Below are positions 23,554 to 48,160 of a stretch of DNA of 64,000 bases, one piece after another. The notes under the pieces are model-generated. The model was not told the origin of the DNA and did not search any database. It saw nothing but the letters and a program-made list of their open reading frames with translations. Source of the stretch: Escherichia coli (GTDB lineage: Bacteria; Pseudomonadota; Gammaproteobacteria; Enterobacterales; Enterobacteriaceae); NCBI RefSeq assembly GCF_044324875.1, contig NZ_CP172185.1. One strand, given 5' to 3'. Within the stretch, counting starts at the first letter, position 1. Every line of letters begins with the position of its first letter. The position numbers and the translations under genes were made by a program.

Positions 23554-24300
23554 TTAACGCGTTCGCTGCGAAAGCACCTGCTGCTTATCCAGCTTTTGCA
23601 CCAGCGGTTGCACCACTTTATCCCCATGCTGACCAAAGTATTGATACAGCGTATCGGACGCACTTTTGGTCAGCACCATAATCTCAATGCGCCGGTTGCC
23701 CGCGCTTTGCGGATTTTTGGCATCCAGCAGCATCTGGTCCGCCATTGCACTTACCTGCATCACTTTATCTTCCGGCATTCCGGCCTCTTCCAGCACCCGA
23801 CGAGCTGAAAGCGCGCGATCGCCCGAAAGGTTCCAGTTGTTGTAGATATTGTTTTTGTAGGCCATCGCATCGGTATGCCCGGTGATGATGATCTTATTGT
23901 CGAGCGAATCAAAAACCGGTGCTAACTCCACCAGCAAAGTTTTAAAGAACGGCATAATCTGCGCGCTGCCGCGTTCAAACATATTGCGGTTCTGGTCATC
24001 TTTAATCAGCACGCGCAGTCCCTGGGGAACAATCTCCATCTCCAGATTCGCTTCCATATGCGCATCACGGGCAATGGTGTTGATACTGGTTGCCAGCTCG
24101 CCAAGCTCAGTAGCGGATTTCTTCTTCAGCAGCGCCGTTTTCTCGTTGACGTCATGCGCTTTTTTCTCCGTCTCTTCCGGCACCGCCACGGTGGCAGGTT
24201 TTGGCGGATGAGACGGTCTGATTTTATTTAACGGCGACAGCCCGCCACCGTTAAAAATCGACTGCCCGTGCAGCGCGGCGATAATGCTTTCACGCTCGGA
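23554..24300 (-). pseudogene. lafU: 5'-truncated lateral-flagellar MotB-like stator gene (Flag-2 remnant)
   Basis: C-terminal OmpA/MotB-like peptidoglycan-binding region present (IIITGHTD..., NRRIEIMVL) but no N-terminal TM segment; 5' boundary approximate. Confidence 0.7.
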
Positions 24301-26023
24301 TTTACTGACGCTGTTGACAATCAACTTTATCGTCGTCACCAAAGGGGCCGAGCGTATTTCCGAGGTTTCTGCCCGCTTTACCTTAGACGCGATGCCTGGC
24401 AAACAGATGGCGATTGACGCCGATCTTAACGCCGGGTTGATCAACCAGGCGCAGGCGCAAACCCGGCGCAAAGATGTTGCCAGCGAGGCCGATTTCTACG
24501 GCGCGATGGACGGGGCATCGAAGTTTGTGCGCGGGGATGCCATCGCCGGGATGATGATTCTGGCGATCAACCTGATCGGCGGCGTCTGTATCGGGATCTT
24601 CAAATACAACCTGAGCGCCGACGCCGCCTTCCAGCAGTATGTACTGATGACCATCGGCGACGGGCTGGTGGCGCAGATCCCTTCTCTGCTGCTCTCCACC
24701 GCAGCGGCGATTATCGTCACCCGCGTCAGCGACAACGGCGATATCGCCCATGATGTGCGCCACCAGCTGCTGGCAAGCCCGTCGGTGCTCTACACCGCCA
24801 CCGGGATCATGTTTGTGCTGGCGGTTGTGCCGGGGATGCCGCATCTGCCGTTTTTGCTGTTCAGCGCCCTGCTTGGTTTTACCGGCTGGCGGATGAGCAA
24901 ACGCCCGCAGGCGGCGGAGGCGGAAGAGAAAAGCCTCGAAACACTGACCCGAACCATCACCGAAACCAGCGAGCAACAGGTCAGTTGGGAAACTATTCCG
25001 CTGATCGAGCCCATCAGCTTAAGCCTCGGCTACAAGCTGGTGGCGCTGGTGGACAAAGCACAGGGTAACCCGCTCACCCAGCGGATTCGCGGCGTGCGGC
25101 AGGTGATTTCTGACGGCAACGGCGTGCTGCTGCCGGAGATCCGCATTCGGGAAAACTTCCGCCTCAAGCCCAGCCAGTACGCCATTTTCATCAATGGCAT
25201 TAAGGCTGATGAAGCGGATATTCCGGCGGATAAACTGATGGCCCTGCCCTCCAGCGAAACCTACGGCGAGATTGACGGCGTGCTGGGGAACGACCCGGCG
25301 TACGGGATGCCGGTGACCTGGATCCAGCCCGCGCAGAAAGCGAAGGCGCTGAATATGGGGTATCAGGTGATCGACAGCGCCAGCGTGATTGCCACCCATG
25401 TGAACAAGATTGTCCGCAGCTATATTCCTGATTTGTTTAACTATGATGACATCACGCAGTTGCATAACCGTTTGTCGTCGATGGCACCGCGCCTGGCGGA
25501 AGATTTGAGCGCGGCGCTCAATTACAGCCAATTGCTGAAAGTGTACCGGGCGCTGCTGACCGAAGGCGTTTCCCTGCGCGATATTGTCACCATCGCCACC
25601 GTGCTGGTCGCCAGTAGCACAGTGACCAAAGATCATATCCTGCTGGCGGCCGATGTGCGCCTGGCATTGCGGCGCAGCATTACCCATCCGTTCGTTCGCA
25701 AGCAGGAGCTGACGGTGTATACGCTGAATAATGAGCTGGAAAATCTGCTCACCAACGTGGTGAATCAGGCGCAACAGGGCGGGAAAGTGATGCTCGACAG
25801 CGTGCCGGTTGACCCGAATATGCTCAACCAGTTCCAGAGTACGATGCCGCAGGTGAAGGAGCAGATGAAAGCAGCGGGGAAAGCCCCTGTGCTGCTGGTG
25901 CCGCCGCAGCTGCGTCCTTTGCTGGCGCGTTATGCAAGGTTGTTTGCGCCGGGTCTGCATGTGCTGTCGTATAACGAAGTGCCGGATGAGCTGGAGTTGA
26001 AGATTATGGGGGCGTTGAGTTGA
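24300..26023 (+). pseudogene. lfhA: 5'-truncated FlhA-like flagellar export gate gene (Flag-2 remnant)
   Basis: Translation enters within the FlhA core (NFIVVTKGAERISEVSARFTLDAMPGKQMAIDADLNAGLI) and runs through the cytoplasmic domain; N-terminal TM region missing; 5' boundary approximate. Confidence 0.7.
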
Positions 26024-26029
26024 TGGCCT

Positions 26030-26350
26030 TTGGGGCGAATCCGGCATCGGTGCACAATTGCCGGATGCGGCGTGAACGCCTTATCCGGCCTACCGATCCG
26101 GCACAAGTTTGTAGGCATGATAAGACGCGTCAGCGTCGCATCAGGCATCTGCGCACAATTGCCGGATGCGGTGTGAACGCCTTATCCAGCCCACCGATCC
26201 GGCACAGGTTTGTAGGCATGATAAGACGCGCCAGCGTCGCATCAGGCACCGGTGCACAATTGCCGGATGCGGTGTGAACGCCTTATCCGGCCCACCGATC
26301 CGGCACAAGTTTGTAGGCATGATAAGACGCGCCTGCGTCGCATCAGGCAT
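26030..26350. repeat. BIME cluster: three tandem ~105-bp units each carrying two REP palindromes
   Basis: Repeated gccggatgcggcgtgaacgccttatccggcc and gtaggcatgataagacgcg.cagcgtcgcatcaggca units seen three times. Confidence 0.8.
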
Positions 26351-26360
26351 CCGCGCACAA

Positions 26361-26858
26361 TTATAAAATAATACGCTCCCCGGCACTAAAATCCGTTATG
26401 TCTCCCGCCCAATCAATGGGATATAACCCTCGCGCTACATCGCGATGGAACGTTGAGAATGGCCAATCACTCACCTGCTTTACCCAGCCATGTTTCACTG
26501 GATTTATATAAATATAATCAACATGATGGCGATAATCTTTTGTATTGCGAATGGCATGCTCCCAAAAACGCGGTTGCCAGATATTTTTCAATCCGCAAGC
26601 ATGGGTGAACTGCTTTTTAATCTCCCGCCAGCGAGAGGAAAAATCATCATCGCTTTCGGGTAATGTCCAGATACAGTGCATATGCTCTGGCAAAACTACC
26701 CAGGCGTTAATTTCAAAAGGTCTGGCCTGCTTAACTTTAATAATGGCGTTACGGAGTGTCTGGTACTGGGTGGTCAAAAGTTGGCTTCGACGATTCCGTA
26801 AATTTACCGTGAAAAACCATGTTCCCCCCTTGATGTAATAACGACGATATTCAGACAT
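26361..26858 (-). CDS. rayT: REP-associated tyrosine transposase (IS200/IS605 HuH family)
   Basis: 165-aa ORF MSEYRRYYIKGGTWFFTVNL... with HuH motif (LPEHMHCIW) and REP clusters on both flanks. Confidence 0.85.
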   Translation of the reverse strand: MSEYRRYYIKGGTWFFTVNLRNRRSQLLTTQYQTLRNAIIKVKQARPFEINAWVVLPEHMHCIWTLPESDDDFSSRWREIKKQFTHACGLKNIWQPRFWEHAIRNTKDYRHHVDYIYINPVKHGWVKQVSDWPFSTFHRDVARGLYPIDWAGDITDFSAGERIIL

Positions 26859-26939
26859 GGCGACTCCTTTTTCTCAACGATAAGAAGAAAAGGAAAAGTC
26901 GACAATGAAGTTGTGTTATATCGGGAAAGCAGCTCGCAA

Positions 26940-27030
26940 AAAATTCGCAGACTCGTAGGCATGATAAGACGCGGCAGCGTCGCATCAGGCATCGGTGCAC
27001 TATTGCCGGATGCGGCGTGAACGCCTTATC
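26940..27030. repeat. REP/BIME element upstream of rayT
   Basis: gtaggcatgataagacgcggcagcgtcgcatcaggcat...gccggatgcggcgtgaacgccttatccgtcctac. Confidence 0.7.
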
Positions 27031-27034
27031 CGTC

Positions 27035-27793
27035 CTACAAAATCGTCTCTTCCGTCAAAATCCTGCGCGCGCCTAAAAAATGATCCTGCCAGAAAGGTTC
27101 AGCTAACCGACTTACCCGAATGGTTTCCCCGGTGCGCGGCGACTCGATAAACTGACCGTCTCCCAGATACACGCCCATATGATCGGCAATCTCACGGCTG
27201 TGAATATGGAAAAACAGCAAATCTCCCCGGCGCAGGTCGTTATTCGCCACAATCGTTGCCCGATGGTAGTGATACATCTCATTGGCCGTGCGCGGGAGCT
27301 TCGCCTCGAGGATCTTGTTGTAGGCATAAAAAACCAACCCGCTACAGTCGAAGCCTTGATCGGGCCGCGTGCCGCCCCAGACGTAAGGCTTACCAAGCTG
27401 CTGCTCCAGGCGGTGAATCGCCACTTCGGTGATGTTGTGCAGATGGTCGCTGCTTAAGAAATGGTTGTTCTCCGCCAGCGCCTGCCAGCGTCTGTCACTC
27501 GCCTTGAGCGGCGCAGGAAACCATTCTGGATGCTGTTTTATCTGTTCGCGGTTGTGCTGGCGCAGCGCCTTTCTGCTTTCGGCATTGCCTTCCACAATAT
27601 AGCTGGCCTGTTTTTTCAGATGGGTTTGGTACTGTTTTAATAAACGCGCACGGTTTTGCATCCGCTGGCGGGCGGCGTAGCTGAAAGAGATATGTGATGT
27701 GGTGGCGCTGGCGAGTAAAGGGAGCAAAACGCATAACGAAAACACGCCTGGATGCAGAAATCTGCCGTGAAAGAACGAAGACATGAAGGACAT
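27035..27793 (-). CDS. yafL: NlpC/P60-family peptidoglycan endopeptidase lipoprotein
   Basis: 252-aa ORF with signal peptide and NlpC/P60 catalytic region (YVWGG...GFDCSGLV...HMGVYLG). Confidence 0.85.
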   Translation of the reverse strand: MSFMSSFFHGRFLHPGVFSLCVLLPLLASATTSHISFSYAARQRMQNRARLLKQYQTHLKKQASYIVEGNAESRKALRQHNREQIKQHPEWFPAPLKASDRRWQALAENNHFLSSDHLHNITEVAIHRLEQQLGKPYVWGGTRPDQGFDCSGLVFYAYNKILEAKLPRTANEMYHYHRATIVANNDLRRGDLLFFHIHSREIADHMGVYLGDGQFIESPRTGETIRVSRLAEPFWQDHFLGARRILTEETIL

Positions 27794-28084
27794 AAACCGG
27801 CTGAATGAAGGGGAGAATTTTAAAAGACCGGAGGAGTAAGCGGGATTATTAATTGCTTATTTGCATATTACTATTGAGGTTTCATAATCTTAGGAAATAA
27901 ATGATACATGCGCTTTTCGGACTAATGAAAACTGCCCCTGTGCTAAATTTGTAAACCCTGCGCCGACAGGCTTGCGTAAAACTCTTTTGGTGATAATGTG
28001 AGCCTTCCAAATCCAGACTATTCCGATTTGGGATCCATTTTGCCGTCCTGGCGTGTGTAACCGTTTTATCAAGGAATAAGCAGT

Positions 28085-29609: not shown

Positions 29610-29745
29610 GATTTAAGTATTTTCAGGTCGGATGCGGCGTAAACGCATTATTCGGCCTACGGTTCGGGTACAGATTTGTAGGCATGATAAGACGCGTCAG
29701 CGTCGCATCAGGCATCAGCGCACAAATGCCGGATGCGGCGTAAAC
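29610..29745. repeat. REP/BIME elements, the distal one split by the IS insertion
   Basis: gtcggatgcggcgtaaacgcattattcggcctac ... gtaggcatgataagacgcgtcagcgtcgcatcaggcat ... gccggatgcggcgtaaac; the other half-REP (aacgccttatccggcctac) resumes at 31178. Confidence 0.7.
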
Positions 29746-30500
<755 letters not shown>

Positions 30501-30604
30501 ATCAGCATACTTGTCCTTAGCCTTCTGCAGTGACAGCTGGTAGTACAGCGTGCTTCTGGCCAGCCCTGCAGCCTTTAACAGGTCAGACTGGCAGTGTCCG
30601 CACC

Positions 30605-31135
30605 TCAGGCTCCGGATGACTTTCGTTTTTTCTCCAGCTCCTGGCGCTTTTTTTCCAGGAGATGCTCCTGCATGGCTTTCAGATATGCATTTTCTGCGCG
30701 AAGATAACGCAGCTCATTCTTCATCTCTTCCGGCGTCATGTTTGCCTCGTTTTCATGGGTATCATCAGAACGGGTCATGCTTTTCTCCTTCCAGCGCCTG
30801 ATAAAGGCCTCATTACCAGATTTGCGGTAGCCTTTTATCCAGTTTTTAACCGTGTTGTGGCTGGGAATGTTAAACCGGGCAGCTACCCGGGGTAGAGACT
30901 CAGAATGCCCGAGAGCATAAAGAACCACGCAAAGTTTATCTTCAGGAGAATAGCTACGCTTGTGTCTGCAATCCAGTGCCCGAGGACCGTGAAGAAGAAA
31001 AAGATTAATCCAGTGTGAGAGGCTGGTGTGAGAAAGTTGAAAGAGTTTTGCCGTAGAAATGATGCCTGCATGACCGGCCAGGTAGTGATTTACAGCGGCA
31101 AGTTTTACTTCAAATGAATGTTTCATAAACTGCAC
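30605..31135 (-). CDS. IS3-family transposase OrfA (HTH plus leucine zipper)
   Basis: 176-aa ORF upstream of and out of frame with OrfB, typical of IS3 programmed frameshift architecture. Confidence 0.7.
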   Translation of the reverse strand: MQFMKHSFEVKLAAVNHYLAGHAGIISTAKLFQLSHTSLSHWINLFLLHGPRALDCRHKRSYSPEDKLCVVLYALGHSESLPRVAARFNIPSHNTVKNWIKGYRKSGNEAFIRRWKEKSMTRSDDTHENEANMTPEEMKNELRYLRAENAYLKAMQEHLLEKKRQELEKKRKSSGA

Positions 31136-31203
31136 CTTCAGATGTCAGATTATGTCCAACATTTGGGGTGCAGTTCAAACGCCTTATCCGGCCTACGCCA
31201 GAC

Positions 31204-39887: not shown

Positions 39888-41459
39888 TTAATAATCCATA
39901 CCTATCGTCCACGTTGTCACTGGCTTCGGCGGTGTTACTTTTTTCTCCACAGTGCGTTCTTTACCGTATAAATTAACCCGTAATGGTGAATCCTTTACCT
40001 CCATAGGATCACATAACTGCCACTCAACGGTATCTTTCTTCTCAGGTTTTTCGCTCTTTTCCTTCCCCTTTCCTTTTTCATCAACTTCACCATGAGACAC
40101 ATCAATCTTAAATTCAAACTTCCCTTTAATGCCGTCATGAAATAATGCTAGGTCCAGTCCGTCATCATGTGAATCAAATCCAAATCCAGCTTTCGCTTCT
40201 ATAGAGGCAGTCGCTTCGGCGGTCAGTTGTACAACAAAAACATTCGCCTCAAACGTCGCACTCACCACACCTTTTAAACCGAGCTTGATGTTACTTTCCT
40301 TTACATTAAACTCCCATTTTTTATCCTTTTCAGCGTATACTGCGCCAAGATCAAGATTAATCTCCGCTGAAATCTCGATATAGCATTCAACACTGGCTCC
40401 GTTTTTACGGAGATATTCACGACATCTGTTGACCAATGACTCGACTTTACAATATGCACATATAAATGAAATAATATCGAATCTGAACGACGCTTCAAAA
40501 AATGGGGCACCAAACAAACCATAAAAATGACAGGGGCCATCCTGGATATCGGTATATTGATAGGCATACGATATACCCAGTTTAACGGGTTCTATTTTTG
40601 CACTGAACAATGCATATTTGCGCGTACCATTATTATTGTCAGGATCTGGCGCAAAATATTTATTGACATTCTTGACCAGAGAGTCAATTCTTCCTATCTG
40701 TTCCAGTTGCTTTGTTTGTCGAAGTTTTTTTATCTCTTTTTCATATTCACTTGTGTGTTCAACATTAGCTATTTTTACGCCAAAATCGACAGTCAGGGAA
40801 GTCTTGTTTATCCACTCAAACTCAGCAGTGGTATTTGTCCAGCCGCTACGGAGTTTATTTTTATCCCTGGGCTTGGTGTTCTCCATTGCGTCCCTGGCTT
40901 TTATTCTTTCGTCACGCCGCTCTTTTACTGTTCTCGTCTGTTTTGATGACGAAATCTCATAGCTGAACCCTGTAGTAAACCTAATTTCCACTGTAGGATA
41001 AACATCAATTTCAACATAATTGCCACATTCGTAACAACTGTCAATTCTGACTGAATAATGGGCAGGTTCATAATGATTCTTAAGTGGAGAGGATATTGCC
41101 CCCAAATAATCCCATGGTACTCGAAATGTACCCATAGCAATTATTTCACCTTCAGACAAGTTATCATCCAAAGTGACCTTATTAGGTATTCCGAAAGGTT
41201 GCAGTATCTTATGATTATTTTCTGATTCTTCCTCTAACCATGCCTCATGTGTTCCACTTTTATCGCACTGGTAGGTAATGGTAATTATACCATCACATCC
41301 GGAACCATCATCCAGTAGCTTAAAACGCGCCACTCCTTCTTTTGACCAGAAATGTTTCTCGCCGGCCTCTGGAAAATCACTAATAACATCAAAAATACAT
41401 GGATCAGGAATGCCGCATTCCACACAGGGCTTTCCGGCTGTCGAAGATGGAGATGTCAT
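39888..41459 (-). CDS. Candidate T6SS cargo effector of unknown function
   Basis: 523-aa ORF downstream of the DUF4123 adaptor gene; Cys-rich N-terminus (CVECGIPDPC, CYECGNY), charged coiled-coil-like middle, Lys/Glu-rich C-terminus; no motif I recognise; AT-rich. Confidence 0.45.
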   Translation of the reverse strand: MTSPSSTAGKPCVECGIPDPCIFDVISDFPEAGEKHFWSKEGVARFKLLDDGSGCDGIITITYQCDKSGTHEAWLEEESENNHKILQPFGIPNKVTLDDNLSEGEIIAMGTFRVPWDYLGAISSPLKNHYEPAHYSVRIDSCYECGNYVEIDVYPTVEIRFTTGFSYEISSSKQTRTVKERRDERIKARDAMENTKPRDKNKLRSGWTNTTAEFEWINKTSLTVDFGVKIANVEHTSEYEKEIKKLRQTKQLEQIGRIDSLVKNVNKYFAPDPDNNNGTRKYALFSAKIEPVKLGISYAYQYTDIQDGPCHFYGLFGAPFFEASFRFDIISFICAYCKVESLVNRCREYLRKNGASVECYIEISAEINLDLGAVYAEKDKKWEFNVKESNIKLGLKGVVSATFEANVFVVQLTAEATASIEAKAGFGFDSHDDGLDLALFHDGIKGKFEFKIDVSHGEVDEKGKGKEKSEKPEKKDTVEWQLCDPMEVKDSPLRVNLYGKERTVEKKVTPPKPVTTWTIGMDY

Positions 41460-41480
41460 ATAATCTATCCGTTTGTCTTT

Positions 41481-42323
41481 TTATTGTGGGATAAATCCCA
41501 GTTCCTGTTGTGCAAGTTCATGTACCCGAATATGTCCCGGGTATGACTGATTGCTGAGTTGTTCATACCAGTCATCCGGAATATATCTGAGATCGATTAT
41601 ATTTTTTTTCAGTAATATAAGCGTCATTGTTCTGACGGAACGATCATCTGCTATATTTAATGACTGGCAAAAAGAGAAATAATCTTCTGCCAGAATTCGG
41701 GATGATTCAGCTTTTGATGAATCATCCCATCCGTTTTTATCTACATTTTCTTCGATAAATGCAGATAATATATCAAGATAATTATCCCGTGCCTTTCGTT
41801 CCAGTTGGCTATATTGTCTGTAACTCAGCGTCAGTTGTGATGGCCGTTCTGCCCTTATATTCATAGTTTCTGCGGGACGGACGGAAGAAAAATTATCCTC
41901 ACGACATTCTTCACCATAACGGGTACTTAGCTGTCTGACGGGACTGATAAAAGAAAGACGCTGGCGGGGGGTCAGAACTTCCACTAATACCCATATATTC
42001 CGGGGATCATAAAATCGCATGAGAACAGGTTTCTCCTGTTCGGGGATCCTAACCCACAGATAACGTCTGAAGTGTTGCTGTAGCTCACGCATGGATGACT
42101 CAGAAGTCAGATATATTCCCCATGGCGACGCCTTAACACTCAGCCATGCTTCAACCTCCGGAACGACTTCCACGAGATAGGGGGCTAGCGCGACCAGATC
42201 CAGTTGTATGGGTTCTGCATACAGACAACAGTGCGGGGGATTCACCTCGTTCAGAAAATCCAGCAATCCTTCCTCCACAGCGCCATCCACAATGGCGTAC
42301 TGCACGGGTGCCGTTTCCATCAC
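41481..42323 (-). CDS. DUF4123-family T6SS effector adaptor/chaperone (Tap/Tec-like)
   Basis: 280-aa ORF with the family's N-terminal YAIVDGA-type motif; start overlaps the vgrG stop (ATGA). Confidence 0.7.
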   Translation of the reverse strand: MMETAPVQYAIVDGAVEEGLLDFLNEVNPPHCCLYAEPIQLDLVALAPYLVEVVPEVEAWLSVKASPWGIYLTSESSMRELQQHFRRYLWVRIPEQEKPVLMRFYDPRNIWVLVEVLTPRQRLSFISPVRQLSTRYGEECREDNFSSVRPAETMNIRAERPSQLTLSYRQYSQLERKARDNYLDILSAFIEENVDKNGWDDSSKAESSRILAEDYFSFCQSLNIADDRSVRTMTLILLKKNIIDLRYIPDDWYEQLSNQSYPGHIRVHELAQQELGFIPQ

Positions 42324-44278
42324 TTATCCTCCTTCGGGCAGTGCGCCACAAACATTGTCCCGCTTCCGGCTGCGGCTTTCAGGATCACCGGGCGCATCGG
42401 CAGGATCACGTCTCCCGGACTGCCTCCGCCGTTAAGATTGATTTTCGCGCCCTTAATATCCACGCCGCCGGAATGGATCACCACAAATGAACCGCCCACC
42501 CGCAGACTGATTTTGCTGTCGCTCTGTAAAACAATATCGCCCTGTACGCTGATACCCAGCGCGCCGCTTATTTTCTGTGCCAGATCGCCTTTCACCTCCA
42601 GCCCCTGATTGCCCTCTGTCAGGCTGACATGGTCTTTGGTGGTTTTATGGTCCTGTTTACCTTCAACCGTCACTTTCCGGTCATTTGCCACCACCAGGGA
42701 TTCATCATGCCCGATGCTGACCGTCCGGTCATAGTTGACCCGCTTATCCTTGCTGTTCAGCACAACGACTTGCATATTTTTCTGTGCGTGCAGGTAAATT
42801 TCTTCCTTGTCCGTCGCGTCCTCGAACCGCAGTTCATTAAAGCCGCTTCCTTTATAGGTCTTCGATCGTATCGTCATCTGCGTCTTCGTCCCCGGCAGAC
42901 TCCCCGGCGAACGGTTGTCCTCATGGTACGTCCGCCCCATGATTATCGGCTGGTCCGGGTCGCCGTTCAGGAAGTCTACAATCACTTCCTGGCCGATGCG
43001 CGGTATCGCCAGGTTACCAAATCCCGGCCCCGCCCACGCCTGCGACACCCTCACCCAGCATGAACTCGCCTCCGTTGCCGGGTTATACCTGTCCCAGTGA
43101 AACTGCACTCGCACACGTCCGTGTTCGTCGCAGAAGATTTCCTCTCCCGCAGGACCGGTGACAATGGCGCTCTGTGGCCCGTCCACCTTCGGTTTGCTTT
43201 GCAGCCGTGGACGCCACGTCCGGTCCGCCGGTATCACCTCTAACTGATTTCCCAGCATGGTTCCTCTCCCCTGGCTGCCGTGCAGCGCCTGCGGCTGGTC
43301 CCCTGACAGAATACTCTGTACCACCTGCCATTCACGGTTCAGCATCTTCTGCGGATGCCCCGTCAGCGTAAACCGCGTTCCCGGCCACAGCTTCGGTGAA
43401 TTACTCTGCCCTGTGGCCTTTTCCGCATCACTGCGCAGGCTCTCCATCTGGTACAGCGTGAAATCCTTGCCGTGCTGTTCATCCTTGAACCTTCCCGGAT
43501 AATCAAATATCTCATACTGCTCCAGCTGTCCGTTCAGGTTCTCACCCTGCTGCTCATACATCCCCGGCCAGTCCGGCACCTTAAACGTGTAATCCTGGCT
43601 CTGCACCGACGACGGGCGGACATACGCCTCATAACGGAACATACTGACACACTCTGTCTCCGCTCCTGCCGATGTGTCCGGGTTAAACGGAAGCTCTCCC
43701 GCCTGTGACAGCCCCGCCACATCGTCGCACAGCGTCAGCTTCTGCTCCGGACTGTCCGCCGCAAACCGCTCAAAGAAGAAAATTCCCTCCTCCGCCCACA
43801 ACCGCGCCAGAAACGCCAGGTCGCTTTCCCCGTACTGGACACAGAACTCCCGCGCCGGATGGTCCTCATAAAACAGCGGTGTCCACTCCGTGACGCCGTT
43901 CTCGTTCAGTAACGTGGCCGATATCGTCCGGATATCCTGCTGCTGGAAGATACGGAAGTTCTGCCGCAGCCCGCACCGCCATAACGGCGGCTCAATACGC
44001 AGGTGATAACGCATCTGCCAGCCATTGTTCTCCTGCATGCCAAAACCCGCCACCACGCCGGTGACATAACGCAGCGGGATGACGCCCTGCCAGATGGTCA
44101 GCGTCGCCTTCTTCTCCAGCAGCATCTCCGCCGTCTGCATAAAAGAGTCGCTGGCAACATCCACACTCATCACAAACGGATAAGACTGGTTCTGGATTAA
44201 CCTGAAATGCACCACTGCAAAGGTGTCCGGCTCCTGGCCGTCAATCTCCAGCGTAAAGCGCAGACCTTTTAAGGACAT
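42320..44278 (-). CDS. vgrG: T6SS spike protein VgrG
   Basis: 652-aa ORF MSLKGLRFTLEIDGQE... with gp27/gp5-like VgrG architecture and C-terminal beta-helical repeats. Confidence 0.9.
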   Translation of the reverse strand: MSLKGLRFTLEIDGQEPDTFAVVHFRLIQNQSYPFVMSVDVASDSFMQTAEMLLEKKATLTIWQGVIPLRYVTGVVAGFGMQENNGWQMRYHLRIEPPLWRCGLRQNFRIFQQQDIRTISATLLNENGVTEWTPLFYEDHPAREFCVQYGESDLAFLARLWAEEGIFFFERFAADSPEQKLTLCDDVAGLSQAGELPFNPDTSAGAETECVSMFRYEAYVRPSSVQSQDYTFKVPDWPGMYEQQGENLNGQLEQYEIFDYPGRFKDEQHGKDFTLYQMESLRSDAEKATGQSNSPKLWPGTRFTLTGHPQKMLNREWQVVQSILSGDQPQALHGSQGRGTMLGNQLEVIPADRTWRPRLQSKPKVDGPQSAIVTGPAGEEIFCDEHGRVRVQFHWDRYNPATEASSCWVRVSQAWAGPGFGNLAIPRIGQEVIVDFLNGDPDQPIIMGRTYHEDNRSPGSLPGTKTQMTIRSKTYKGSGFNELRFEDATDKEEIYLHAQKNMQVVVLNSKDKRVNYDRTVSIGHDESLVVANDRKVTVEGKQDHKTTKDHVSLTEGNQGLEVKGDLAQKISGALGISVQGDIVLQSDSKISLRVGGSFVVIHSGGVDIKGAKINLNGGGSPGDVILPMRPVILKAAAGSGTMFVAHCPKEDK

Positions 44279-44452
44279 AATGACCTCCCTGATTTATTCA
44301 CGGACCAAATGATTCTTACCATGCAGCAAAGGGTGCCAGTGCAGCGTTACACTCATCTTTACATTTTCAGGTACGCTACCGCCCGGGTTTCCGGCATCCG
44401 CCATCTCCCTCATGAAAGCGTAACTCCTTACTGACACTCATTTTTTACACGT

Positions 44453-44488
44453 ACAAAAACAACATCCTGCACGAAGGCAGGATGTTGT
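44453..44488 (-). terminator. Hairpin terminator/attenuator between hcp and vgrG
   Basis: Minus-strand CAACATCCTGCC-ttcgtg-GGCAGGATGTTG followed by TTTTTG immediately after the hcp stop. Confidence 0.45.
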
Positions 44489-44498
44489 TGACTCAGAT

Positions 44499-45017
44499 TT
44501 ATGCTTCCAGCGGTGCACGCCAGTCATCGGCACCAGAAGTACCGGATTTGATGTGCTCCCACTCAACCTTACGGTATGCCAGTGATACTGCGAGCAATTG
44601 CGTAAACTCACGCTGTGCAGGGTCCTGGCAGTGCGGCATGTGCAGGTTCATGTCCACAATCGTCGCGTCAGTAAGACGTGTGGTGAAGTAGTGCTCCTGC
44701 TTGCCTTCAACTGAAGTACGCCACCAGTGCAGCTCCACTTTCGGCAGCATTTCACCGGAGGCCAGCGCGTTGTACAGCAGCGGAACGGCTTTGTTCAGCG
44801 CCACGGTGAAAATGAACGGTTTGTGCGCGCGCTGCCCGGAAGGTTGACCAGACTGTGGATCGGTTGGAACAGTAACGTTATGCAGAAACTCCTGCACCAG
44901 CATTTCATCTTCGTGTCCCTGCACGTAGATATTGCCGACAGAATCTGCGGTGAAAGCACCGGCAGTGATGTTCCCCTGGGTCTGACCTGTAATTGAAATG
45001 TAACATGGGGTTGGCAT
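44499..45017 (-). CDS. hcp: T6SS inner tube protein Hcp
   Basis: 172-aa ORF MPTPCYISITGQTQGNITAGAF... typical Hcp. Confidence 0.9.
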   Translation of the reverse strand: MPTPCYISITGQTQGNITAGAFTADSVGNIYVQGHEDEMLVQEFLHNVTVPTDPQSGQPSGQRAHKPFIFTVALNKAVPLLYNALASGEMLPKVELHWWRTSVEGKQEHYFTTRLTDATIVDMNLHMPHCQDPAQREFTQLLAVSLAYRKVEWEHIKSGTSGADDWRAPLEA

Positions 45018-45396
45018 TTATGAACTCCTTGTGAAATTATCAACTGCTGTTTTACGAACAACCCGTCGTTAATCCCCGACGGGTTAGAGTGTGATGCGGC
45101 TCACATCAGGAACCACACCCTTTTCTTTATTCGAGTTACAGGCACACGTAATTAGCACCTACTGAAAAACTCTTTTATGGTGTTTAAATATATTTTTAGT
45201 CAATTTCAGAACACGGTCACATAAGCTAAAAATATATCAACTTCAACAGCAGAATTATCCATAACGTATCCTTCCCCCCATAAAAATCCACAGCCGCGTC
45301 AAAAACAAATTATTACGACACTTACTCAGCCATCGTTCCAGCACGCAATTAAGACATTCCTTAAAGGAATTCCTTATGATGTATTTCCAGCAATTA

Positions 45397-45406
45397 ATCA
45401 ATTGAT
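45397..45406. promoter_or_regulatory. Perfect 10-bp palindrome in the divergent hcp/tssB control region (candidate regulator binding site)
   Basis: ATCAATTGAT within AATTAATCAATTGATAAAA in the ~700-bp AT-rich intergenic region; resembles AT-rich Fur-type half sites but not verified. Confidence 0.2.
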
Positions 45407-45719
45407 AAAACCATACATAAAACTTATTAATAAATTTAATAAATACATATAAATCAATATATTATGGCATTTTATTGACCGTAAAATCATATTCATCAAG
45501 TCTATAAATACCAAAATTTATTTCACTATAATATATTAGCAAGGAAGAATACATCTCTTTCTAAAATATAAATAGTTCTTTTAATATTTTATTTCATGAG
45601 TAGAATACCGATCACAACAGAAGGAAGGTTACATTATCTAACTGCCACTGAAACGGTATCTTCGGTATTTTTATGCAGTACGAAAATGCTGTGCTCATGG
45701 CCTGAACGGGAACATTTTT

Positions 45720-46223
45720 ATGAGCAAAATGAACAACAATGGCGGCAGTGTCGCGCCGAAAGAAAGAATCAGCGTTCGGTATACACCAAAAGTTGATGGG
45801 GTGGCTGCTGATATCGAATTGCCGCTGAATTTATTGATCACCGGCAATCTGAAAGGGAAACCAGATAACACGCCGTTGGACGAGCGAACTGCCATTGCTA
45901 TCAACCGCTATAACCTCAACGCAGTCATTTCAGAAGCTGACATTGAACGGGAGTTTGTTGTTCCGGCTGAACTCAGTGACGCTCCCAATGAGCAAATGTA
46001 CGTCAACCTGAAAGTCAAATCTATGGATGACCTTTCTCCGGACCATATTGCCAGCCAGGTACCAGAAATAAAACGTCTGCTCGAATTGCGTGAAGCTCTG
46101 GTCGCACTTAAGTCTCCACTAGGCAATATTCCGGCCTTCCGCGCACAACTTCAGGCGCTACTGGAAAACGAAGACAGCCGCGAGCAGCTGATCCAAGAAC
46201 TGGGTATCGCCGCTCAGAAATAA
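45720..46223 (+). CDS. tssB: T6SS contractile sheath small subunit
   Basis: 167-aa ORF, first gene after the divergent promoter region, followed by tssC. Confidence 0.9.
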   Translation: MSKMNNNGGSVAPKERISVRYTPKVDGVAADIELPLNLLITGNLKGKPDNTPLDERTAIAINRYNLNAVISEADIEREFVVPAELSDAPNEQMYVNLKVKSMDDLSPDHIASQVPEIKRLLELREALVALKSPLGNIPAFRAQLQALLENEDSREQLIQELGIAAQK

Positions 46224-46245
46224 TTTTCACAGAAGGATTTTCAGT

Positions 46246-47730
46246 ATGTCAGTAAAGGAAGATATTGCTCCCGTCAGCGCGTCGCAAACCGCCGCGCCCC
46301 CATCTCTGCTTGATGAAATCATGGCGCAAACCCGCGTCCAGCCTAAATCAGAAAGCTACGATATCACCCGCCAGGGCGTGAGCGCCTTTATTGCCGCCAT
46401 GTTACAGGGCGACAGTAGCGCTGAACCTATCAATATCCTGGCCGTTGACGCCATGATTGCTGATATTGATGCCCGAACCAGCAGGCAGATGGATGCCATT
46501 ATTCATGCCCCGGAGTTTCAGGAACTGGAATCCCTGCTGCGCTCGCTGAAGCTGCTGGTTGAACGCGCGGATACACGGGAAAACATCAAGGTCCATTTCC
46601 TGAATGTCACTCAGGAAGAACTGCTGGATGATTTCGAATTTGCACCTGAAATCACGCAGTCTGCGTATTACAAGCATGTATATTCAAGCGGTTACGGACA
46701 ATTTGGCGGTGAGCCAGTGGCGGCGGTAATCGGCAACTTTGCCTTTAAGAACACCACGCCGGATATGAAGTTGCTGAAATATATCAGCCAGGTCAGTGCG
46801 ATGGCGCACAGCCCGTTCCTCTCATCAGTATCATCCGAATTTTTCGGTCTGGACTCATGGACAGAGTTACCAGGGATCAAAGAACCAGGAGCAATCTTTG
46901 AAGGCCCGGCCTATTCCCGCTGGCGTGCCTTGCGTGAATCTGAAGATTCACGCTACCTGGGACTGACTGCCCCCCGGTTCCTGCTGCGTCACCCTTACTC
47001 GCCAGATGAGAACCCAGCCAGGACCTTCCGTTACCATGAAGACGTCAGCCAGAGTCACGAGTCTTATTTGTGGGGGAACACCTCGTTTTTACTAGCTGCG
47101 AACCTGGCTGAAAGTTTTGCTAAATATCGCTGGTGTCCCAATATCATTGGCCCTTCCAGCGGCGGCGCAGTCAAAGACCTCCCGGTGCATCTGTATGAAT
47201 CCATGGGGCAAATGCAGGCAAAAATTCCGACTGAAGTGTTGATCACTGACCGGAGAGAGTATGAGCTGGCGGAAGAAGGCTTTATCACACTGACCATGCG
47301 TAAAGGATCTGATAATGCGTGCTTTTTCTCGGCCAACTCGGTGCAGAAACCCAAAAAATTCCCCAAAACCCCCGAAGGCAAGGCTGCGGAGACCAACTAT
47401 AAACTCGGCACTCAGCTGCCATACTTATTTGTAATCAGTAGGTTAGCGCATTACATCAAGGTAATTCAGCGCGAACAGCTTGGCTCATGGAAAGAACGCA
47501 GTGACCTGGAGCGTGAGCTGAACACCTGGATTCGCCAGTATGTGGCCGACCAGGAGAATCCGCCTGCCGAAGTCCGCAGCCACCGACCATTACGTCAGGC
47601 GAAGATCGAGGTACTTGATGTGGATGGTGAGCCAGGCTGGTACCAGGTCGCGATTTCTGTCAGACCGCATTTTAAATACATGGGTGCCAGTTTCGACCTG
47701 AGTCTGGTCGGACGACTGGATAAGGAATAA
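46246..47730 (+). CDS. tssC: T6SS contractile sheath large subunit
   Basis: 494-aa ORF directly after tssB. Confidence 0.9.
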   Translation: MSVKEDIAPVSASQTAAPPSLLDEIMAQTRVQPKSESYDITRQGVSAFIAAMLQGDSSAEPINILAVDAMIADIDARTSRQMDAIIHAPEFQELESLLRSLKLLVERADTRENIKVHFLNVTQEELLDDFEFAPEITQSAYYKHVYSSGYGQFGGEPVAAVIGNFAFKNTTPDMKLLKYISQVSAMAHSPFLSSVSSEFFGLDSWTELPGIKEPGAIFEGPAYSRWRALRESEDSRYLGLTAPRFLLRHPYSPDENPARTFRYHEDVSQSHESYLWGNTSFLLAANLAESFAKYRWCPNIIGPSSGGAVKDLPVHLYESMGQMQAKIPTEVLITDRREYELAEEGFITLTMRKGSDNACFFSANSVQKPKKFPKTPEGKAAETNYKLGTQLPYLFVISRLAHYIKVIQREQLGSWKERSDLERELNTWIRQYVADQENPPAEVRSHRPLRQAKIEVLDVDGEPGWYQVAISVRPHFKYMGASFDLSLVGRLDKE

Positions 47731-47734
47731 TCAG

Positions 47735-48160
47735 ATGCAAAGACGGGATTCAGGGCCAACCAGCAGTCTTTTTGAACGTATTCGTGAGGCGGCCAACCCG
47801 CCTTCATACCAGAATACAAAAGAAGCACTGATACGTTCCATCAGACGTAACCTGCGACAGGTCCTGAATACCCGCTCCGGCAGTTGTTATGGCTCACCAG
47901 AGCTGGGGATTACTGATTTAAATGATGAATCGCTGGCCTCCAGCGATTTCAGACGAGAAATCCGTAAGTCCATTAGCCAGTGCATTTTACATTACGAACC
48001 TCGTATTACCGATGTTGTTGTTACGGCTGCGGCACCGGATGAATACGCCCCTGTGGAACTACGTTTTCATATTGTGGCTACGGTCGATGTCAGCGAAACC
48101 AGGGGAGTGTTTGAATTTGACATTTTGCTGGACAATCATCAACGCTATTGTGTGGAGTGA
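47735..48160 (+). CDS. tssE: T6SS baseplate protein (gp25-like)
   Basis: 141-aa ORF, gp25-like lysozyme-fold baseplate subunit. Confidence 0.8.
   Translation: MQRRDSGPTSSLFERIREAANPPSYQNTKEALIRSIRRNLRQVLNTRSGSCYGSPELGITDLNDESLASSDFRREIRKSISQCILHYEPRITDVVVTAAAPDEYAPVELRFHIVATVDVSETRGVFEFDILLDNHQRYCVE

Follow-up and report, generated by a model that had tools for sequence, protein, structure and literature searches.

The closest described counterpart of the locus analysed here is the REPtron of Escherichia coli K-12 (Nunvar et al. 2010; Ton-Hoang et al. 2012; Messing et al. 2012; PDB 4ER8). Ton-Hoang et al. (2012), who named the REPtron, located it in 74 of 110 genomes (67%), at a unique site between yafL and fhiA, with one BIME 5' of rayT and a variable number 3' of it. 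That article attributes loss of the REPtron either to replacement by hicAB, in 24 strains (22%) that are mostly B1, or to precise excision with the BIMEs left behind, in seven B2 strains, and states that REP numbers barely differ between rayT+ and rayT- strains. It also defines BIME-2 elements by alternation of Y and Z2 REPs, short linkers and tandem arrangement. For Nunvar et al. (2010), flanking by inverted cognate REPs is the criterion of a RAYT, and RAYT genes in many genera are always so flanked.

The activity of the K-12 enzyme has been characterised in vitro, where single-stranded DNA is its only substrate. A folded REP is bound only if it carries both a 5' GTAG and a stem mismatch, and any single-base change in the GTAG abolishes binding and cleavage. 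Cuts are made at C|T, both within linkers and at the sites TGCC|TGAT and GGCC|TAC, which lie to either side of neighbouring inverted REPs; the C|T is indispensable for cleavage, a 5'-phosphotyrosine link is formed, the strands can be rejoined, and recombination products contain an additional REP. These data all refer to the K-12 protein, from which RayT of the present locus differs at 6 of 165 residues.

Three further groups of elements provide points of comparison. IS200/IS605 elements (e.g. IS608, ISDra2) likewise combine an HUH/Y1 enzyme with sub-terminal imperfect hairpins preceded by a 5' tetranucleotide, and share single-strand DNA chemistry via a 5'-phosphotyrosine intermediate; in contrast to their transposases, TnpA-REP is monomeric and has a C-terminal extension (Messing et al. 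2012), and the REPtron, unlike these elements, is single-copy, fixed and immobile, with hairpins on both strands as inverted pairs. The REPIN-RAYT system of Pseudomonas (Bertels & Rainey 2011) is similar in having a single-copy RAYT and cognate REP doublets, whereas the E. coli doublet pairs different REP types (Y and Z2) and occurs in tandem arrays. Other E. coli BIME-2 arrays, such as REP325, which lies between yjdM and yjdN, also show inversely alternating Y and Z2 REPs, short linkers, tandem organisation and copy number that varies between strains; the array described here differs in lying directly against the stop codon of rayT, whose product is its recognising nuclease.

The stretch of E. 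coli DNA considered here, 64 kb in length and referred to below as the window, contains a REPtron made up of the domesticated HUH/Y1 gene rayT, present once in the window, with a lone Z2/Y BIME-2 5' of it and a three-unit BIME-2 array 3' of it. Gene and locus (lfhA-rayT-yafL) are those of the K-12 REPtron, and the Y and Z2 REP types, the single 5' Z2/Y BIME, the linkers of 12 and 17 nt and the 101-bp unit are common to both. The two differ in the number of 3'-side units, three here against two in K-12, in the GTGG and weakened upper stem found here in the Y REPs of units 2 and 3, and in dinJ-yafQ, which lies beside yafL in K-12 and is absent here.

Results

The rayT gene (tnpA-REP, yafM; 26361-26858, minus strand) is an open reading frame of 165 codons for an intact HUH/Y1 single-strand DNA nuclease. 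A preliminary description of this DNA had recognised it as a REP-associated tyrosine transposase, an identification that is borne out both by the NCBIfam equivalog model of that name (NF047646; 178.3 bits, cut-off 80) and by a match over residues 1-164 to the crystallised E. coli TnpA-REP, i.e. the K-12 protein (PDB 4ER8 chain A, 'TnpArep'; E = 8e-114), with which 159 of 165 residues are identical. The six substitutions relative to K-12 are M34T, H37N, R44Q, D45A, G69S and V154I. When the active-site residues listed by Messing et al. (2012) are considered, all are kept, namely the HUH motif H59-M60-H61, the catalytic Y115, N119, H123 and E161, and K82, which contacts the stem mismatch (bulge), is kept also. 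Searching RayT against Pfam at E <= 0.001 gave no match, and relaxing the threshold to E <= 10 gave a match to the IS200/IS605 family Y1_Tnp (PF01797) at residues 20-69 (17.3 bits, E = 0.0052) that falls short of the gathering score of 23 bits. The family assignment was therefore taken from the NCBIfam and PDB matches, and the sub-threshold Y1_Tnp score fits the published view of RAYTs as a clade apart from the IS200/IS605 transposases. No second copy of rayT was found within the 64-kb window. The ribosome-binding site of the gene, and its own promoter if it has one, must lie in the 96 nt upstream (26859-26954, minus strand); a consensus scan for promoters and terminators across 25900-27200 returned no sites, so that no sigma-70-like promoter was located in 26859-26954. 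The length of this upstream region is kept at 95-96 nt among the sampled alleles in which a 5'-side Z2 REP was detected.

REPs were sought across the entire 64-kb window by Hamming distance to E. coli Y, Z1 and Z2 consensus sequences, which agree with the E. coli entries in Table 1 of Nunvar et al. (2010). Ten intact REPs were located, eight of them inside the rayT kilobase, where they flank the gene on both sides as the preliminary description had stated. Their order is Y(-) Z2(+) three times, then rayT, then Z2(+) Y(-); this Y/Z2 alternation, together with short linkers (12 and 17 nt), tandem repetition (3.2 copies) and the lack of the long IHF-binding L linker of BIME-1, marks the elements as BIME-2. 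As single-stranded DNA, six of the eight fold canonically, with GTAG left unpaired ahead of a stem that contains a 2x2 internal mismatch; their energies span -9.0 to -12.2 kcal/mol and their z-scores -2.7 to -4.7. These fold energies, and the presence of eight of the ten REPs within 1 kb, show that the cluster around rayT is not due to chance. The Z2 REP at 26313-26349 (plus strand) and the Y REP at 27004-27038 (minus strand) face each other across rayT with their GTAG heads outermost, i.e. the gene is bordered by inverted, cognate, GTAG-headed REPs as described for RAYTs, with additional REPs on both sides.

On the 5' side of rayT the single BIME consists of a Z2 REP (26955-26991, plus strand; two mismatches to the consensus; hairpin -9.7 kcal/mol, z -4.5) and a Y REP (27004-27038, minus strand; GTAGGACGG...) identified by consensus scan and hairpin fold. 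The existence of a second REP pair had been noted previously, with limits of 26940-27030 that now require correction to 26955-27038. With the crystallised oligonucleotide taken as quoted in Messing et al. (2012), the sequence of this Y REP (GTAGGACGGATAAGGCGTTCACGCCGCATCCGGCA) is that of the REP co-crystallised in 4ER8 except for one loop base, and its CTAC contains the stop codon of yafL (TAG, 27035-27037). A repeat search also retrieved the region 26948-27038 as a fifth, direct copy of the array unit, with 90% identity to the reference unit.

On the other side of rayT, 3' of the gene, Tandem Repeats Finder (TRF) delimited the tandem BIME-2 array to 26039-26362, scoring it at 564 and resolving 3.2 copies of a 101-bp period with 92% matches and 0% indels; an independent repeat search gave copy spacings of 101, 101 and 101 bp. 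Three units are thus present as previously proposed, with a period of 101 bp in place of the approximately 105 bp, and limits in place of the 26030-26350, that had been suggested; their alignment, the check recommended at the time, is gapless and identifies them as tandem duplicates. Each unit is composed of a 12-nt linker, which joins Z2 to Y, a 35-nt Y REP, a 17-nt linker joining Y to Z2 and a 37-nt Z2 REP, making 101 bp. In unit 1 the Y REP (26059-26093, minus strand) has a GTAG head, matches the consensus with no mismatches and folds at -12.2 kcal/mol (z -4.4), and the Z2 REP (26111-26147, plus strand) has two mismatches and a hairpin of -9.7 kcal/mol (z -4.7). The Y REP of unit 2 (26160-26194, minus strand) is degenerate, with three mismatches, a GTGG head, a broken upper stem and one additional stem mismatch (-6.2 kcal/mol, z -1.3); the Z2 REP that follows it (26212-26248, plus strand) has one mismatch and a hairpin of -9.7 kcal/mol. 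Unit 3 again contains a degenerate Y REP (26261-26295, minus strand; two mismatches, GTGG head, -9.4 kcal/mol, z -2.9), the upper stem of which is altered by the identical change to that in unit 2, and 11 nt separate the end of its Z2 REP (26313-26349, plus strand) from the stop codon of rayT. As in REPINs, a single long hairpin is available to a Y-12 nt-Z2 doublet (-18.7 kcal/mol, z -2.5); with a minimum free energy (MFE) structure frequency of 0.04, this form has no clear advantage over a pair of separate hairpins.

Pairwise comparison of the three units gives 8, 6 and 6 differences per 101 positions when the TRF register is used, and 7, 5 and 6 in a register beginning at the 12-nt linker. 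Nine sites are variable among them and, when polarised against units of the other sampled strains, support conflicting groupings. Sites 25 and 45 unite units 2 and 3 through derived changes absent from all other sampled alleles, i.e. a C->T substitution within the upper stem of the Y REP and the conversion of CTAC to CCAC; the latter replaces GTAG by GTGG in the minus strand and, in the plus strand, removes the C|T of the type II cleavage site. Sites 3 and 5, within the 12-nt linker, instead unite units 1 and 3, and both linker variants occur in other strains. Unit 1 most resembles the first units in EC1515, ECNB21 and PT62, with three differences. These conflicts point to recombination or conversion between units rather than to clock-like divergence. 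The units do differ at a few positions, as the preliminary description observed, but the use it foresaw for these differences, the dating of the duplications, is weak because the units are mosaic; an attempt at ordering and dating was dropped, since the nine variable sites conflict and are too few to make the order statistically secure.

The derived changes shared by units 2 and 3 imply that the extra unit would be a copy of one in which the Y REP was already degenerate. Extrapolation from point mutants of another REP predicts that RayT should not bind a Y REP headed by GTGG. Given that the published point-mutant data make this Y REP a predicted non-substrate, the last duplication probably did not proceed by RayT acting via the Y REP; host slippage or unequal recombination between the 101-bp units would be favoured over that route, and an alternative origin for the extra unit could be RayT acting via the intact Z2 REPs, on the other strand. 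The duplicated unit without a GTAG-headed Y REP may accordingly serve as a natural example that suggests array expansion without recognition of that REP by RayT.

The left neighbour of the REPtron is lfhA (fhiA; 24284-26023, plus strand), the 3' part of a lateral-flagellar flhA pseudogene, the open reading frame of which matches Pfam FHIPEP (E = 3.4e-189) across profile positions 99-656 only; its counterpart in strain M7424 is annotated as a partial flhA without the N-terminus. To the right lies yafL (27035-27793, minus strand), which encodes a C40 peptidase of the NlpC/P60 type (Pfam NLPC_P60, E = 3.2e-33). Region 25900-27150 matches E. coli M7424 at 99.9%, and gene order in that strain is dinB, lafU, partial flhA (lfhA), rayT, yafL, dpaA. 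In every example inspected rayT lies between flhA/lfhA and yafL, in the order found in K-12, identifying this as a fixed locus.

Variation at this locus was surveyed in 5,426 complete E. coli genomes, in which a REPtron was called where at least 80% of region 25900-27150 was covered. By this measure 3,120 genomes (57%) carry the REPtron. Other alleles at the lfhA-yafL intergenic site contain hicA-hicB and no REPs (L004; 1,370 genomes, 25%), BIMEs without rayT (L009, an allele of the B2 precise-excision type), or a 101-bp spacer free of REPs (L003; 128 genomes). The proportions with REPtron (57%) and hicAB (25%) are close to the 67% and 22% given by Ton-Hoang et al. (2012), in a set of genomes fifty-fold larger. 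The exact three-unit allele of the window was found in only four records among the 5,426 genomes, M7424, M00057, M11957 and VTB96959v.

Twelve REPtron alleles were parsed into REPs: that of the window, its duplicate in M7424, and ten others. On the 5' side of rayT there is one Z2/Y BIME across the 12 alleles, that of OV24 being represented by the only REP detected there, a Y. The 3' side ranges from about one unit (strains 118 and PT62) through 1.5 units with an internally deleted Y REP (EC1515, PapRG-06-5, Res13 and TB06051), two units (K-12 and OV24) and 2.5 units (ECNB21) to three (K71-77 and the window), where the counts for OV24, K71-77 and ECNB21 include a REP that was too diverged for the scan and was recognised by reading the sequence. 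This comparison of copy number among strains, proposed in the preliminary description as a means of checking its reading, had already been published by Ton-Hoang et al. (2012).

Discussion

Taken as a whole, the locus is, with high confidence, best explained as the E. coli REPtron at its fixed lfhA-yafL site. On this explanation RayT would act in trans on single-stranded DNA to bring about excision, insertion and local amplification of BIMEs genome-wide, while the REPtron itself would be immobile; BIMEs would, as the authors of that proposal infer, diversify by use of alternative cleavage sites and then undergo local, rolling-circle-like amplification. The 3'-side array varies in copy number from lineage to lineage. 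The preliminary description had related the layout of the locus to RayT-mediated proliferation of REPs, a connection also made by Nunvar et al. (2010) and Ton-Hoang et al. (2012). In the literature covered, no demonstration of RayT-driven BIME transposition or amplification in vivo in E. coli was found, and a mobilome study reported no circular BIME intermediates.

Several features of the locus could be read differently. It is possible, albeit unlikely, that the BIMEs are mainly 3'-UTR elements and that their adjacency to rayT says little about transposition, in which case they would serve as terminators and stabilisers of three transcripts, the convergent ones of lfhA and rayT and that of yafL. 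A 2026 preprint describes the BIME-2 REP325 as a partly Rho-dependent terminator and mRNA stabiliser, and another preprint mentions a 15-nt rule that governs how REPs regulate translation. The positions of the REPs suit such a role, with the stop codon of yafL inside the 5'-side Y REP and that of rayT 11 nt from the last Z2 REP; being less than 15 nt from the stop codons, the BIMEs would on this reading be expected to throttle translation of both yafL and rayT. An effect on translation of REPs close to stop codons was reportedly described by Liang, Rudd and Deutscher in Molecular Cell in 2015. A 3'-UTR function is compatible with the REPtron explanation, in that BIMEs may serve in this capacity also, or instead. 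However, it leaves unexplained both the presence of cognate REPs at RAYT genes of many genera and the specific binding and cutting by RayT of exactly these REPs.

A narrower proposal, which we consider improbable, is that the BIME-2 array at the rayT stop codon and the REP over that of yafL constitute a copy-number-tunable throttle on RayT expression. Were this the case, the throttle would act through mRNA stability, termination or ribosome stalling, and the dosage of REPs in the REPtron would feed back on the level of the REP-processing enzyme. The same proposal would allow host recombination to go on enlarging arrays in which the Y REPs no longer carry the GTAG required by RayT.

Very little weight attaches to the suggestion that the Z2-S-Y doublets are genes for nucleoid-associated small RNAs resembling naRNA4. 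Covariance-model matches to Rfam RF02564 (naRNA4) were obtained on the minus strand at 26114-26191, 26215-26292 and 26958-27035, with scores of 72.1-75.9 bits that exceed the gathering score of 59.5; since this model was defined from the BIME-2 REP325, and any Y/Z2 doublet will score, such matches restate the BIME-2 assignment. Against a small-RNA function, the consensus scan of 25900-27200 located no promoter-like site nearby, and a 2026 preprint finds REP325/naRNA4 to be without measurable nucleoid compaction. Finally, that the REPs and rayT make up an autonomous IS200/IS605-type insertion sequence moving as a block is scarcely credible. A Y1/HUH gene bordered by hairpins is indeed IS200/IS605-like and has a weak Y1_Tnp match near its HUH region, but that match (17.3 bits) is under the Pfam cut-off of 23, rayT occupies the identical lfhA-yafL place in all examples inspected rather than transposing with its REPs as a unit, and this fixed location, together with the literature, effectively excludes such an element.

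The layout of the locus and its variation between strains are real but ordinary and already known, having been published in 2010-2012. The anatomy, polymorphism and in vitro chemistry of the REPtron have been in print since 2010 (2010-2021), and the locus is the textbook case in which an HUH transposase has been domesticated and is accompanied by its cognate repeats. What is new is small: the rare three-unit allele, the GTGG shared by its units 2 and 3, the mosaic differences between units, and updated allele frequencies. The minor REP-less allele (L003) is likewise absent from the descriptions in the available part of Ton-Hoang et al. (2012). Beyond correct annotation these points have little significance; the field asks if RayT mobilises or amplifies REPs in vivo, and by what means, and one extra allele adds nothing to the testability of that question.

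A last observation concerns the orientation of the locus. GC skew on the plus strand of the window is -0.028 overall, and all but one of the eight 8-kb bins are negative. Read in the conventional way, and allowing for the weakness of the signal, this skew would make the minus strand the lagging-strand template. If so, the lagging-strand template would be the strand that carries the Y REPs GTAG-first, in the orientation recognised by RayT, and rayT and yafL would be co-directional with replication.

Possible recombination and REP placement at the rayT locus

The REPtron, i.e. rayT (26361-26858, minus strand) with its flanking BIME-2 REP pairs, differs from that of M7424, a strain carrying the same three-unit allele, at a single position in 1,251 bases (window 25900-27150), whereas the adjoining lfhA pseudogene (24397-25600) differs at approximately 50 positions, mostly at spacings that are multiples of three. 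Such uneven divergence from M7424 suggests that a breakpoint of recombination separates lfhA from the REPtron.

Both genes bordering the REPs have a stop codon with a REP less than 15 nt away: the yafL stop codon TAG (27035-27037) falls within the CTAC of the Y REP on the 5' side, and the last Z2 REP of the 3'-side array lies 11 nt from the rayT stop codon (gap and stop codon together, 26350-26363). In strains with the hicAB allele the yafL stop codon is TAA, versus TAG here. Each complete Z2-linker-Y doublet matches the Rfam family naRNA4 (RF02564) above the gathering score (26114-26191, 26215-26292 and 26958-27035, all on the minus strand); these matches reflect the BIME-2 origin of RF02564.

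Rearranged and REP-less alleles in other strains

The 3'-side array is internally rearranged in other REPtron alleles (loci L013 and L010/L011/L014). In TB06051 (L013 424-760) the last ~110 bp of flhA are duplicated and embedded between BIMEs, and in EC1515, PapRG-06-5 and Res13 a 31-bp deletion has occurred between CCGG repeats inside one Y REP. In MS20675 (L008, at ~1490-1500) an IS-associated rearrangement, with an ISEc31 remnant and a group II intron lying upstream, removes lfhA and truncates the same three-unit 3'-side array as in the window at the GTAG of the unit-2 Z2 REP, or a few bases 5' of it.

Besides hicAB and BIMEs alone, the lfhA-yafL spacer has a third rayT-less state, found in 128 of 5,426 genomes, that is 101 bp long and contains no intact REP. 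The example from E. coli HCP5S3_I2 (L003 3125-3225) ends in GCAGTATTGCCG followed by TCCTAC, which, judged from its sequence, looks like the 12-nt linker joined to a Y REP that has lost its hairpin core, a deletion of 24 bp between CCG repeats. The same spacer also contains the GC-rich hairpin CCCCTCGCCCCTTTGGGGAGAGGG, and flhA was intact in both examples of strains with the REP-less spacer that were seen.

Flanking regions of the window

The spacer separating yafL from dpaA (yafK) is only 291 bp long (27794-28084); the dinJ-yafQ toxin-antitoxin pair, which occupies this position in K-12, is absent between yafL and dpaA in both the window and M7424. A further Y REP, part of a BIME between yafJ and lpcA, is interrupted by an IS3-family element of 1,432 bp with two overlapping ORFs (29746-31177; flanks 29727-29745 and 31178-31193), which has 99.9% identity to annotated copies of IS1397, an insertion sequence known for targeting REP loops. 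The insertion point is exactly the loop of the Y REP, GCGGCGTAAAC preceding and AACGCCTTATCCGGCCTAC following the element, and is accompanied by a 3-bp duplication, AAC; M7424 has no IS1397-like element at this site.

Further differences from M7424 lie elsewhere in the window. Beside a minus-strand tRNA gene (10493-10565; identified with Rfam, and annotated as tRNA-Thr in M7424) the window has ~1.3 kb (within 9185-10565, which includes the tRNA gene), against ~0.34 kb in M7424. Collinearity with M7424 stops at ~42.9 kb of the window, where the end in M7424 adjoins truncated secretion-system remnants and IS elements; the window carries a type VI secretion gene cluster (42000-64000; tssM, tssH, vgrG, tssF, tssC and others) that is 100% identical to its counterparts in several strains, among them E. 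coli 042. GC skew is strongly negative, at -0.11, in the bin 40001-48000.
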